DNA of 64,000 bases, taken from Escherichia coli (lineage in GTDB: Bacteria > Pseudomonadota > Gammaproteobacteria > Enterobacterales > Enterobacteriaceae). Numbering within the stretch: the stretch's first letter is position 1; each line of letters opens with the position of its first letter. The position numbers were made by a program, and so were the translations under genes. The notes below the pieces were generated by a model. That model was not told the DNA's origin. It made no database searches and saw only the letters and a list, made by a program, of their open reading frames with translations. Positions 4,620-39,853 of the stretch are shown here, piece by piece. Where the stretch lies: NCBI RefSeq assembly GCF_030013595.1, contig NZ_CP122768.1; one strand, given 5' to 3'.

Positions 4620-5897
4620 TTAGTTAATCCATTTCAGAGGAGCGGTGATGAGTTCCGGAATAAATATAAAAACAACCAATAGTGAATATAAAACCAGTAC
4701 GTAAGGGAAAACGCCTCTTACCGCATCATCAAATTTCAGTTTCGCCACACCGGAAATAACATTAAGGACATTGCCGATGGGCGGTGTAATTAATCCTATG
4801 GAACAGTTAATGATAAACATGACACCGAAATAAATCGGATCGATTCCTGCCTCTTTAACTAAAGGCATTAATACCGGGGTAAGAATTAATACCGTCGGCG
4901 TTAAATCCATGACCATGCCGACAATCAGGATAGCCACCATAATGACGATAAACAGCAGACGCGGTGAATCGACCAGCGGTTGCAGTAAATCAGAAACCAT
5001 CATCGGCAGTTCAGCAATGGTGATCAGCCAGGCGGAAACTTGTGCCGAGGCCACCAGAAACATCACCACTGAGGTCGTTTTCGCTGCGCCAATGAGCACA
5101 TGCCAAAGTGTGGCGAAGGTCATTTCACGGTAAATAACTGTGGCGACAAACAGCGCATAGAAAGCAGCAACGGCCCCGGCTTCGGTAGGGGTAAACAGAC
5201 CGGAGCGAAACCCGCCAATAATGATGACTGGAAGAAACAGCGCCCAGATACCGGAGACAAAAGAGTGCCAGATTTCCTGCATCGTTGCTTTTTGCTGGCG
5301 GGGTAAATTAAGGCGACTGGCCTGCCACCACCAGGTAAGCATCAGCGTTGCGCCCATCATCATGCCAGGGGCAATGCCCGCCATAAACAGCTTACTGATG
5401 GATAATCCGCTGGAAACGCCGAAAATAATAAACGGAATGGAAGGGGGAATAATTGGCGCGATAATCCCGCCAGAGGCAATCAACCCCGCAGCCCGGTTGA
5501 CCGGGTAGTTAGCGCTGCGCATCATCGGCACCAGTAACGCGGCAACGGCGGCGGTATCTGCAACAGCAGAACCAGAAAGGCTCGCCATAATCATTGCCGC
5601 CAGCACGCCGACGTAGCCCAGCCCGCCAGGTTTATGCCCCACCAGTTTCATCGGCAGGTCAACAATGCGTTTCGACAAGCCGCCCGCATTCATGATTTCA
5701 CCCGCCAGCACAAAGAACGGTATCGCCAGCAGGGAGAAACTGTCGGCTCCGTTCACCAGCGTTTGTGCCATGATCTGGACATCAAACATCTCCAGCCAGA
5801 ACATTAACGCTGCGCCACATAACAACAGTGCCCAGGCAATAGGCAAACCGATAGCAATACCACCCAACAGACAGCCCAGAAAAATCAGCACAGCCAT
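4620..5897 (-). CDS. yiaN: TRAP transporter large permease subunit
   Basis: 425-aa highly hydrophobic ORF, DctM-like. Confidence 0.9.
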   Translation of the reverse strand: MAVLIFLGCLLGGIAIGLPIAWALLLCGAALMFWLEMFDVQIMAQTLVNGADSFSLLAIPFFVLAGEIMNAGGLSKRIVDLPMKLVGHKPGGLGYVGVLAAMIMASLSGSAVADTAAVAALLVPMMRSANYPVNRAAGLIASGGIIAPIIPPSIPFIIFGVSSGLSISKLFMAGIAPGMMMGATLMLTWWWQASRLNLPRQQKATMQEIWHSFVSGIWALFLPVIIIGGFRSGLFTPTEAGAVAAFYALFVATVIYREMTFATLWHVLIGAAKTTSVVMFLVASAQVSAWLITIAELPMMVSDLLQPLVDSPRLLFIVIMVAILIVGMVMDLTPTVLILTPVLMPLVKEAGIDPIYFGVMFIINCSIGLITPPIGNVLNVISGVAKLKFDDAVRGVFPYVLVLYSLLVVFIFIPELITAPLKWIN

Positions 5898-14960: not shown

Positions 14961-15785
14961 ATGATTTTGACTCCCATACGACGATATGGGGCGATGATTC
15001 TTATGTTACTCACTCTGGTGTTTTCGAGTGAGGTGTTAGCGAAGACGCACACAACAACAGCGAGTCAAAAGTCCCACTTAACTAAAGCTAGTAATAAACA
15101 GGTAAGCAGTAAACAAGAGTATTCTCGCAATAGTGCAAAGAGTAGTTCACTTCCTGATTTGCGAAAATACCCTTCCGGAACACCAAGGAAAAAGGCGTTT
15201 CTCCGGACCGTAATGCCTTACATTACCAGCCAAAATGCAGCCATTACTGCGGAACGTAACTGGCTGATTTCAAAACAGTATCAGGGCCAATGGTCACCTG
15301 CTGAGCGTGCGCGTCTGAAAGACATCGCCAAACGCTACAAGGTGAAGTGGTCTGGTAATACGCGAAAAATCCCGTGGAATACCTTGCTCGAACGCGTAGA
15401 CATTATCCCCACCAGTATGGTGGCGACGATGGCTGCAGCAGAAAGCGGTTGGGGAACGTCGAAGCTGGCGCGCAACAACAACAATCTGTTCGGCATGAAA
15501 TGCATGAAAGGACGTTGTACTAATGCGCCGGGTAAAGTGAAGGGGTACTCACAGTTTAGTTCTGTCAAAGAATCGGTGAGCGCCTATGTTACTAACCTGA
15601 ATACGCATCCGGCTTACTCTTCGTTCCGTAAATCGCGTGCACAGCTGCGTAAAGCGGATCAGGAAGTGACTGCCACAGCGATGATTCACAAGCTGAAGGG
15701 CTACTCGACCAAAGGGAAGAGTTATAACAACTACCTGTTCGCAATGTACCAGGATAACCAACGGTTAATCGCGGCACATATGTAA
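14961..15785 (+). CDS. bax: Bax protein (putative glucosaminidase)
   Basis: 274-aa ORF MILTPIRRYGAMILMLLTLVFSSEVLA... Confidence 0.85.
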   Translation: MILTPIRRYGAMILMLLTLVFSSEVLAKTHTTTASQKSHLTKASNKQVSSKQEYSRNSAKSSSLPDLRKYPSGTPRKKAFLRTVMPYITSQNAAITAERNWLISKQYQGQWSPAERARLKDIAKRYKVKWSGNTRKIPWNTLLERVDIIPTSMVATMAAAESGWGTSKLARNNNNLFGMKCMKGRCTNAPGKVKGYSQFSSVKESVSAYVTNLNTHPAYSSFRKSRAQLRKADQEVTATAMIHKLKGYSTKGKSYNNYLFAMYQDNQRLIAAHM

Positions 15786-37717: not shown

Positions 37718-38416
37718 ATGATCATAAAAAAAAGCGGTGGTCGCTGGCAGCTAAGCCTGCTGGCGAGTGTGGTAATCAGTGCCTTTTTTCTCAACACAGC
37801 TTACGCCTGGCAACAAGAATATATCGTTGATACGCAACCCGGACATTCCACAGAGCGTTACACCTGGGATAGCGATCATCAACCTGATTACAACGATATT
37901 TTGTCGCAACGTATTCAAAGTAGCCAAAGGGCGCTGGGACTGGAAGTCAATCTGGCGGAAGAAACTCCTGTGGATGTGACCAGCAGTATGAGTATGGGCT
38001 GGAATTTTCCTTTATATGAGCAGGTTACAACCGGCCCGGTCGCGGCATTACATTACGATGGCACAACCACCTCGATGTATAACGAGTTTGGCGACAGTAC
38101 TACCACGCTGGCCGATCCGTTATGGCATGCCAGCGTGAGTACCTTAGGCTGGCGTGTTGACTCCCGGCTTGGCGATCTCCGACCCTGGGCGCAAATCAGC
38201 TATAACCAGCAATTTGGCGAGAATATCTGGAAGGCGCAATCAGGCCTGAGCCGGATGACGGCGACAAACCAGAACGGCAACTGGCTGGATGTCACCGTAG
38301 GCGCTGATATGTTGCTCAATCAAAATATTGCCGCCTATGCGGCGCTATCTCAGGCAGAAAATACCACTAACAATAGCGACTATCTGTATACGATGGGGGT
38401 TAGTGCCAGATTTTAA
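37718..38416 (+). CDS. yhjY: Outer-membrane beta-barrel (autotransporter-like) protein YhjY
   Basis: ORF 37712..38416 trimmed to MIIKKSGGRWQLSLLASVVISAFFLNTAYA... (232 aa), ending in aromatic F. Confidence 0.8.
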   Translation: MIIKKSGGRWQLSLLASVVISAFFLNTAYAWQQEYIVDTQPGHSTERYTWDSDHQPDYNDILSQRIQSSQRALGLEVNLAEETPVDVTSSMSMGWNFPLYEQVTTGPVAALHYDGTTTSMYNEFGDSTTTLADPLWHASVSTLGWRVDSRLGDLRPWAQISYNQQFGENIWKAQSGLSRMTATNQNGNWLDVTVGADMLLNQNIAAYAALSQAENTTNNSDYLYTMGVSARF

Positions 38417-38530
38417 CGTAACAGTCACAATTAAAACCATTGAGTAACAATAGTTGTGGCGATAGTGGGTGCTAACTTACCAAATAATAAATTTGGTGAA
38501 TAATTGTCACGTCATTCATTCCTGAACTAA

Positions 38531-38561
38531 GGCATTTCATTCCGTTCTGATGGCATTTCAT
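38531..38561 (+). promoter_or_regulatory. Direct repeats GGCATTTCAT-N11-GGCATTTCAT in the yhjX promoter
   Basis: Two perfect 10-bp direct repeats with an 11-bp spacer about 85 bp upstream of yhjX; this is the architecture reported for the YpdB (LytTR regulator) site. Confidence 0.6.
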
Positions 38562-38644
38562 GCCGTTTTCCCCCAGGCATAAAGTGCACTTCGTTATGGT
38601 TGTCAGCAGAGATTTTTCCTTTTTATTACTGCAGGAATACTGCC

Positions 38645-39853
38645 ATGACACCTTCAAATTATCAGCGTACCCGCTGGTTGACACTCATCGGTACTATCAT
38701 TACCCAGTTTGCGCTGGGGTCGGTTTATACCTGGAGCCTGTTTAATGGCGCGCTTTCCGCCAAGCTGGATGCGCCGGTAAGCCAGGTCGCTTTCTCTTTC
38801 GGCTTGTTAAGTCTGGGGCTGGCAATTTCATCTTCTGTTGCGGGGAAATTACAGGAACGTTTTGGCGTTAAACGCGTCACTATGGCTTCCGGCATTTTGC
38901 TGGGATTAGGCTTCTTCCTGACAGCGCATTCTGACAACCTGATGATGCTGTGGTTAAGCGCCGGTGTGCTGGTCGGTCTGGCGGATGGCGCGGGTTACCT
39001 GCTGACGCTCTCTAACTGCGTGAAGTGGTTCCCGGAGCGTAAAGGTCTGATCTCCGCGTTCGCTATCGGTTCTTATGGTCTGGGTAGCCTGGGTTTCAAA
39101 TTTATCGACACGCAGCTGCTCGAAACGGTGGGTCTGGAAAAAACTTTTGTGATTTGGGGAGCGATTGCGCTGGTGATGATTGTTTTCGGCGCAACGTTAA
39201 TGAAAGACGCACCAAAACAGGAAGTGAAAACCAGCAATGGTGTCGTGGAGAAAGATTACACGCTGGCAGAGTCGATGCGTAAACCGCAGTACTGGATGTT
39301 AGCGGTAATGTTCCTGACTGCCTGCATGAGCGGCCTGTACGTGATTGGGGTAGCGAAAGATATCGCCCAAAGTCTGGCACACCTTGATGTGGTTTCCGCA
39401 GCCAATGCAGTCACTGTTATTTCCATCGCCAACCTTTCAGGTCGTCTGGTTCTGGGGATACTGTCTGACAAAATCGCCCGAATCCGTGTTATCACCATTG
39501 GTCAGGTGATTTCGCTGGTGGGTATGGCGGCCCTGCTGTTTGCACCATTGAATGCAGTGACGTTCTTTGCAGCGATTGCCTGCGTGGCGTTTAACTTTGG
39601 CGGCACTATCACGGTGTTCCCGTCACTGGTCAGTGAGTTCTTCGGCCTCAATAACCTGGCGAAAAACTACGGTGTGATTTATCTCGGTTTCGGTATCGGC
39701 AGCATTTGTGGGTCGATTATCGCCTCACTGTTTGGCGGCTTCTATGTGACCTTCTACGTGATTTTCGCCCTGCTGATTCTGTCACTGGCGCTCTCTACGA
39801 CGATTCGTCAGCCAGAGCAGAAAATGTTGCGTGAGGCGCATGGCTCCCTTTAA
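38645..39853 (+). CDS. yhjX: MFS transporter (pyruvate-inducible)
   Basis: ORF 38600..39853 trimmed to MTPSNYQRTRWLTLIGTIITQFALG... (402 aa). Confidence 0.85.
   Translation: MTPSNYQRTRWLTLIGTIITQFALGSVYTWSLFNGALSAKLDAPVSQVAFSFGLLSLGLAISSSVAGKLQERFGVKRVTMASGILLGLGFFLTAHSDNLMMLWLSAGVLVGLADGAGYLLTLSNCVKWFPERKGLISAFAIGSYGLGSLGFKFIDTQLLETVGLEKTFVIWGAIALVMIVFGATLMKDAPKQEVKTSNGVVEKDYTLAESMRKPQYWMLAVMFLTACMSGLYVIGVAKDIAQSLAHLDVVSAANAVTVISIANLSGRLVLGILSDKIARIRVITIGQVISLVGMAALLFAPLNAVTFFAAIACVAFNFGGTITVFPSLVSEFFGLNNLAKNYGVIYLGFGIGSICGSIIASLFGGFYVTFYVIFALLILSLALSTTIRQPEQKMLREAHGSL

Follow-up and report, generated by a model that had tools for sequence, protein, structure and literature searches.

The direct repeats upstream of yhjX in an Escherichia coli contig very probably represent the published YpdB/PyrR operator and are accompanied by a conserved third in-phase block

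Two identical 10-mers stand a short distance upstream of yhjX in the stretch of 64 kb of Escherichia coli DNA analysed here (the window). Are they the binding site for the response regulator, of the LytTR type, that induces yhjX with pyruvate, as had been proposed from the letters alone, and does the conserved part of the promoter end with these two repeats?

The repeat pair and its genomic setting

The sequence-only reading had suggested a search of the window for the 10-mer pair as a check on its proposal of two identical 10-mers with an 11-nt gap at 38531-38561. The exact-match search confirmed the pair and showed it to be unique: GGCATTTCAT is present on the plus strand at 38531-38540 and 38552-38561, separated by an 11-bp spacer, and these two exact copies are the only ones in the 64 kb, where about 0.27 would be expected by chance. 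The sequence of 38527-38565 reads ctaaGGCATTTCATtccgttctgatGGCATTTCATgccg. Even when three mismatches are allowed, the pattern GGCATTTCAT-N11-GGCATTTCAT occurs a single time in the window, and none of 100 shuffled sequences matched it. The proximal repeat ends 83 nt before the ATG of yhjX (38645) and the distal repeat starts 114 nt before it, so the distance of about 85 bp given earlier is fair. The wording of one helical turn plus one base for the spacing is less fortunate, since the meaningful geometry is the start-to-start period of 21 bp, which corresponds to two helical turns and thus places the distal site (A) and the proximal site (B) on the same face of the helix. Two direct repeats of 9-11 nt, 11-13 nt apart, are likewise found in generic LytTR operators such as the AgrA P2/P3 boxes, the ComE boxes, PlnC/PlnD and the VirR boxes (PMC4847170); here both copies are exact and on one strand, and the 11-bp spacer falls in that range, with its period of about 21 bp.

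By structure alone, a perfect 10-mer pair at short range is not strongly more than chance would give. In an exhaustive count we recovered six exact direct repeats of at least 10 nt with a spacing of 11-40 bp in the window, against about 1.7 expected from Markov-1 simulations. The other five, of 10-11 nt and with a spacing of 18-34 bp, are located at 4867, 47094, 2502, 52039 and 17181 (ATTAATACCG, TGGCGCTGGTG, AATGGCCTGCA, CCACCCGTCG and ATACTGCCAG, respectively). Tandem Repeats Finder returned nothing on 38400-38660, even at a minimum score of 30, and a repeat-family search did not list the GGCATTTCAT pair as a family. What the latter did report was another and weaker family (TCATTCATTCCTGA / TCATTCCGTTCTGA, spaced by 25 bp) together with three inverted pairs that resemble chance matches, and we discarded both. 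Short perfect direct repeats being not rare in the window, and the two 21-bp units matching at 16 of 21 positions in E. coli as they would after a duplication, the pair could be a chance duplication or the relic of a 21-bp tandem duplication without any regulatory role. The significance of the pair therefore rests on its identity to a published motif, on its position and on its conservation across genera, and it is there that this explanation meets its difficulties.

The position is well defined. Of 5426 complete E. coli genomes, 5422 contain a match to the 501 bp around the site, always on the chromosome and essentially in a single copy, with yhjY and yhjX as the annotated genes. A RefSeq record of 100 % identity has the gene order bisC-yiaC-tag-yhjY-yhjX-eptB, which is the same in K-12 MG1655, and annotates yhjX as a CDS of 402 aa at 38645-39853 on the plus strand. 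The encoded protein belongs to the MFS transporters, in the oxalate/formate antiporter family (TIGR00890 with 478.7 bits; Pfam MFS_1), and the annotated CDS together with these two assignments places the repeats upstream of a yhjX orthologue's promoter. The name used by RefSeq/PGAP for YhjX is "L-lactate MFS transporter" (equivalog NF049980, 343 bits with a cut-off of 320). In the experimental literature, YhjX is treated as a putative pyruvate transporter or exporter and its function is regarded as unsettled (PMC9765748 among the sources). Several open reading frames called mechanically run over the repeats (38560-38745 on the plus strand, 38472-38684 on the minus strand and a TTG-extended yhjX frame from 38600); we rejected them since the start conserved among the genera is the annotated ATG at 38645.

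Identity with the operator characterised in K-12

We compared the site with the operator of YpdB (PyrR) studied in K-12 (Fried, Behr & Jung 2013; Behr, Heermann & Jung 2016, PMC4847170). The stretch 38508-38565 is identical at 57 of 58 positions to the K-12 oligonucleotide CGCGTCATTCATTCCTGAACTAAGGCATTTCATTCCGTTCTGATGGCATTTCATGCCG (PMC4847170, Table 1), the fragment bound by YpdB-D53E in surface plasmon resonance (SPR), which supports the earlier assignment to the LytTR-type, pyruvate-responsive regulator of yhjX. The only mismatch, at 38509 (A here, G in K-12), is outside the repeats and 2 nt upstream of a further block, called 'a' and described below. The 10-mers, the sequence of the 11-bp spacer and the downstream gene are the same in both, and so are the flanks with the exception of this SNP. 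Over the 228 bp between yhjY and yhjX there are six differences from K-12 in all (38433, 38442, 38444, 38509, 38570 and 38605), none of which is in the repeats or in any other conserved block. We therefore consider the repeat pair to be almost certainly the already published YpdB/PyrR operator of yhjX, which makes the proposal correct and not new.

A good deal is known about this operator from K-12. The SPR fragment is described as spanning every nucleotide that YpdB protects in DNase I footprinting, and on it the phosphomimetic YpdB-D53E displayed two binding events, one with a KD of 1.2 nM and slow on and off rates and the other with a KD of 21 nM and fast on and off rates (PMC4847170). Transversions in site A abolished the binding altogether, while those in site B left a single event of 23 nM, and from this a sequential "AB-BA" mechanism was proposed, in which A is bound first and B only afterwards (PMC4847170). 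The same paper describes yhjX as the sole direct target of YpdB, reports that nucleotides flanking the repeats affect expression in vivo and names external pyruvate as the signal sensed by YpdA (PMC4847170). According to later papers, Fried et al. 2013 showed that the repeats are required for pyruvate-dependent induction in vivo (PMC4847170). The level of yhjX mRNA rises 678-fold with 3 mM pyruvate (PMC7660256), the induction of yhjX by pyruvate via this system is also documented elsewhere (PMC5552118), and the yhjX promoter of uropathogenic E. coli is driven by a non-cognate pair, BtsS-YpdB, on pyruvate derived from acid or serine (PMC9765748).

In the current annotation of K-12 the genes of the system are called pyrS/pyrR, and PyrR carries the Pfam domains Response_reg and LytTR. 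Among 5426 complete E. coli genomes, 5422 carry the pyrR gene; it lies outside the 64-kb window and, judging from its prevalence in the species, is very likely present in this very genome.

Binding and induction at the sequence of this window are carried over from the K-12 papers and would proceed in the following way. External pyruvate would activate the kinase YpdA/PyrS, with BtsS also feeding into the pathway in uropathogenic strains. Phosphorylated YpdB would first occupy the distal site A with high affinity and slow on and off rates and would then bind cooperatively to the proximal site B with roughly tenfold lower affinity and fast rates, the 21-bp period presumably letting the two protomers sit on the same side of the helix. 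As a result yhjX, whose product is an MFS transporter linked to the transport of pyruvate, would be induced several hundred-fold. The two-repeat site as such adds nothing new, being an operator that has been dissected by experiment, that belongs to a well-studied circuit for the sensing of pyruvate and that virtually every E. coli possesses; it has its value as a positive control, as a real regulatory site that could be recognised by eye.

Conservation across Enterobacteriaceae

A search with YhjX provided 80 orthologous loci from 80 species in about 25 genera of Enterobacteriaceae. We permitted spacers of 9-13 bp, and in every one of the 80 loci the two members of the best GGCATTTCAT pair turned out to be separated by 11 bp. 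When 79 distinct promoters were anchored without gaps on the repeat pair, the conserved unit appeared as 13 nt, [G/T]GCAtTTCAT[T/G]CC, of which positions 2-4 and 6-13 vary little or not at all, and this 13-mer would be the functional unit of recognition. Site A (38531-38543, plus strand) is made up of GGCATTTCAT at 38531-38540 and the 3′ extension TCC; its designation as the high-affinity YpdB/PyrR site is based on the exact match, the 79 promoters and the published SPR (PMC4847170). Site B (38552-38564, plus strand) consists of GGCATTTCAT at 38552-38561 followed by GCC and is the promoter-proximal site of lower affinity, occupied only after A (PMC4847170). The spacer TCCGTTCTGAT (38541-38551, plus strand) is conserved in its first 3 nt and variable in the remainder, with just 0.2-1.0 bits in columns 14-20 of the 79 promoters.

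These results bear on the explanation by chance or by a relic of duplication. The repeats are identical to an experimentally bound motif (PMC4847170), they are nearly invariant over about 25 genera while the spacers have been randomised, and they occur once per genome and always upstream of yhjX. An absence of any regulatory role is already refuted by the published binding and mutagenesis on the same repeat sequence (PMC4847170), and we regard this explanation as extremely improbable.

Directly 3′ of site B we noticed an invariant TTTT tract (38566-38569, plus strand), conserved in 78-79 of the 79 promoters in each column and in at least 95 % of sequences in a gapped alignment. As to its role we can offer guesses, namely a flank contact of YpdB, a bending element or an UP-like element.

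The 13-mer of site B, GGCAT-TTC-ATGCC (38552-38564), is a near-palindrome with the arms GGCAT and ATGCC. One would not expect such symmetry in a head-to-tail LytTR half-site, and because of it the "inverted" copy downstream, described in the next section, has an ambiguous orientation.

An additional in-phase block and an inverted copy of the 13-mer

The published account of the operator comprises two sites (PMC4847170). In this promoter we recognise, in addition, the 13-nt unit, a third block in phase with A and B and an inverted copy; the conserved 3-nt extension and the third block also go beyond the sequence-only reading.

The third block, 'a' (cGTCATTCATTCC, 38510-38522, plus strand), is a degenerate copy located exactly 21 bp upstream of A. 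It shares with A, in register, the G at position 2 and TTCATTCC, and it can alternatively be read as A minus one T, plus one mismatch. Among the 79 distinct promoters the block is as conserved as A and B (G in 78, C in 76, each base of TTCAT in 78, the two bases of CC in 78 and 72), and its flanks are near-random. Scored with a position weight matrix (PWM) built from the 13-mers of A and B only, it reaches 2.35, which is rank 48 of 127,976 window positions; the orthologous 'a' blocks have a median score of 5.8, a value reached by 0.08 % of background positions. The block is situated within the fragment described as covering the DNase I-protected nucleotides (PMC4847170). In the literature search its sequence was recovered only from the oligonucleotide table of that paper, where it is not treated as a site. 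An auxiliary role of block 'a' in the operator is possible, judging from its conservation and phase.

The inverted copy, TGCACTTTATGCC, is a degenerate fourth copy on the minus strand (38576-38588), between site B and the putative -10 element. Its PWM score of 13.2 is the fourth best in the window, and it has one change in the otherwise invariant TTCAT core, which reads TTTAT in E. coli. On the minus strand at +23/+24 from the start of B, a score of at least 8 was obtained in 30 of 81 loci. A perfect consensus stands at this offset in Yokenella, Kosakonia, Phytobacter, Pseudescherichia and others (at +24 in at least five loci); across the 81 loci scored, Enterobacter, Lelliottia, Klebsiella oxytoca and most Citrobacter had no such copy.

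Taken together, the two elements raise the question whether the operator is larger than two sites. YpdB/PyrR might contact three in-phase 13-mers (a, A and B) with a 21-bp period, the first of them being weak and either occupied after the others or serving to stabilise a complex that is bent or of higher order, and in some genera the inverted copy between the -35 and -10 positions might add auto-limitation and in this way contribute to the pulsed expression. This would refine the two-site explanation, and we find it plausible without favouring it. Block 'a' matches A and B in its conservation over the 79 promoters, with exact 21-bp spacing and near-random neighbours, it belongs to the top 0.04 % of window positions by the matrix derived from A and B only, the DNase I-protected fragment starts 2 nt upstream of it and flanking nucleotides influence the expression in vivo (PMC4847170), and the inverted copy is perfect at a fixed offset in several genera. 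However, in the published SPR experiments no binding was seen when 'a' and B were intact and A was mutated, and a single binding event was seen when 'a' and A were intact and B was mutated (PMC4847170); 'a' is thus not an independent or a B-like cooperative site at protein concentrations up to 50 nM. Moreover, the GCA that is invariant at positions 2-4 is missing from block 'a', whose score is low, the inverted copy is missing in many genera, degenerate in E. coli and 24 rather than 21 bp from B, and the primary paper of 2013 may already describe 'a'.

The fullest form of this idea, an a-A-B array of three in-phase 13-mers (38510-38564) with an inverted core-promoter copy in some genera, on which YpdB/PyrR would form a higher-order DNA-bending complex with self-limited activation in those genera, is put forward tentatively and we hold it to be rather doubtful. 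If true, the self-limited activation would help to explain the pulsed expression of yhjX. The three- or four-site architecture is a modest lead.

Another factor, either a transcription factor or the alpha-CTD of RNA polymerase, might share the promoter with YpdB and be served by block 'a', the T-tract or the near-palindromic 13-mers. The two-site model leaves the conservation of 'a' and TTTT unexplained, and the near-palindromy of the B 13-mer is unusual for a head-to-tail LytTR site. However, no known consensus fits these elements, 'a' shares eight contiguous bases with A in register, and the literature has yhjX as the target of a single regulator (PMC4847170), which makes a second factor improbable in our view. 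A CRP-like reading of TGTCACGTCATTCA, which overlaps block 'a', was rejected, as its left half is not conserved in other genera. The published operator of YpdB/PyrR, to which the third in-phase block probably contributes as well, remains our reading of the locus.

The core promoter and the leader

The columns of the promoter were examined in two gapped alignments, one covering 22 genera and the other 76 distinct sequences. Among the elements that stood out downstream of the repeats were TAtnnT at 38595-38600 and TT at 38590-38591. We propose the former, TATGGT in the window (38595-38600, plus strand), as the -10 element: its first T, its A and its final T are conserved in at least 95 % and its third T in at least 85 % of the 76 distinct sequences, and the conservation extends across the 22 genera. 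No hexamer resembling the -35 consensus is present 17 bp upstream of it, where the sequence is CCCAGG (38572-38577). A CAG at 38607-38609 (plus strand) is again conserved in at least 95 % of the 76 sequences. The transcription start is likely near A 38608, 7-8 nt after the -10 element, which would give a leader of 37 nt. Relative to such a start, B would be at -56 to -44, A at -77 to -65, 'a' at -98 to -86, the T-tract at -42 to -39 and the inverted copy at -32 to -20. From the proximal repeat to the conserved -10 there are 34 nt when counted from the 10-mer and 31 nt when counted from the 13-mer. The last step of the mechanism would thus act on a promoter with TATGGT as its -10 element and no -35 element, a start near 38608 and B at about -50, and a promoter of this kind would depend on its activator. 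In this respect too it would be like generic LytTR operators, which are located upstream of activator-dependent promoters and in which flanks matter (PMC4847170).

A different -10 element, TAAAGT at 38580-38585, could be paired with the TTCATG of site B as its -35, so that B would overlie the -35 position; this element is less conserved than TATGGT. A scan with the sigma-70 consensus predicted no promoter at the expected place and had its only prediction at 38477-38504, upstream of the repeats, which is no more than was obtained with shuffled sequences. In the literature searched, there was no paper joining yhjX, YpdB and "transcription start site", from which a published start for yhjX could have been taken.

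The Shine-Dalgarno sequence of yhjX is AGGA at 38632-38635 (plus strand). It is overlapped by a palindrome, TATTACTGCAGGAATA (38624-38639), and the hairpin of minimum free energy has GGA at its stem-loop junction. The predicted fold of the yhjX 5′UTR is no better than those of shuffled sequences (z = -0.46). CsrA is reported to act post-transcriptionally on yhjX.

Variation within E. coli

At least 28 contiguous bases of the 31-mer spanning both repeats were present in 5386 of 5426 genomes, once per genome and always upstream of yhjX. Among the matches listed, which were evenly spaced, about two-thirds had the perfect 31-mer and most of the others matched from base 2 onward, as would be consistent with the TGCATTTCAT variant of site A. 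This variant, aligned to 38531, was found in three of nine sampled strains (ST2747, Eco-15 and FDAARGOS_1285), and probably about a third of E. coli genomes carry it. In FDAARGOS_1285, site B has the sequence GGTATTTCAT (aligned to 38554), and the altered base is invariant across genera. Strain DX6 (NZ_CP126345.1, 1634-2414) has an IS1 inserted into site B, where the target duplication is of 9 bp (TGGCATTTC); the insertion separates 'a' and A from the regenerated B and the core promoter. Natural variants of this kind, with IS1 in B or with changes at invariant positions, are ready-made tests of the AB-BA model.

Comparison with related LytTR systems

A close comparison is with the site of BtsR (YehT) in the promoter of btsT (yjiY), which belongs to a paralogous LytS/LytTR system sensing pyruvate and likewise consists of a direct repeat placed upstream of one transporter gene, with a motif conserved across the Enterobacteriaceae (PMC5552118). 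BtsS/BtsR is the high-affinity pyruvate response, whereas YpdA/YpdB is the low-affinity one (PMC7660256). The two operators differ in motif, and the spacer of the BtsR site is longer than that of the yhjX operator. BtsR recognises ACC[G/A]CT[C/T]A with a spacer of 13 bp. The operators of the LytTR family as a whole have no shared consensus, and the yhjX operator is set apart by its near-palindromic 13-mer and by the conservation of the third in-phase block.

A lone consensus 13-mer and the bax region

A perfect consensus 13-mer, TGCATTTCATGCC, was also found at 15492-15504 on the minus strand, where it is situated within an ORF of 274 aa (14961-15785) that encodes a protein of the glucosaminidase family and is probably bax. 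By a rough estimate from 2 allowed 13-mers and 128,000 positions, about 0.004 matches would be expected by chance. No partner copy was found near this 13-mer. In NZ_CM149870.1, which is 100 % identical around yhjX, bax is 1338 bp farther from yhjX than it is in the window (offsets 182303 vs 183641), and this suggests either an insertion in NZ_CM149870.1 or a deletion in the window, between bax and yhjY (approximately 15800-38300).
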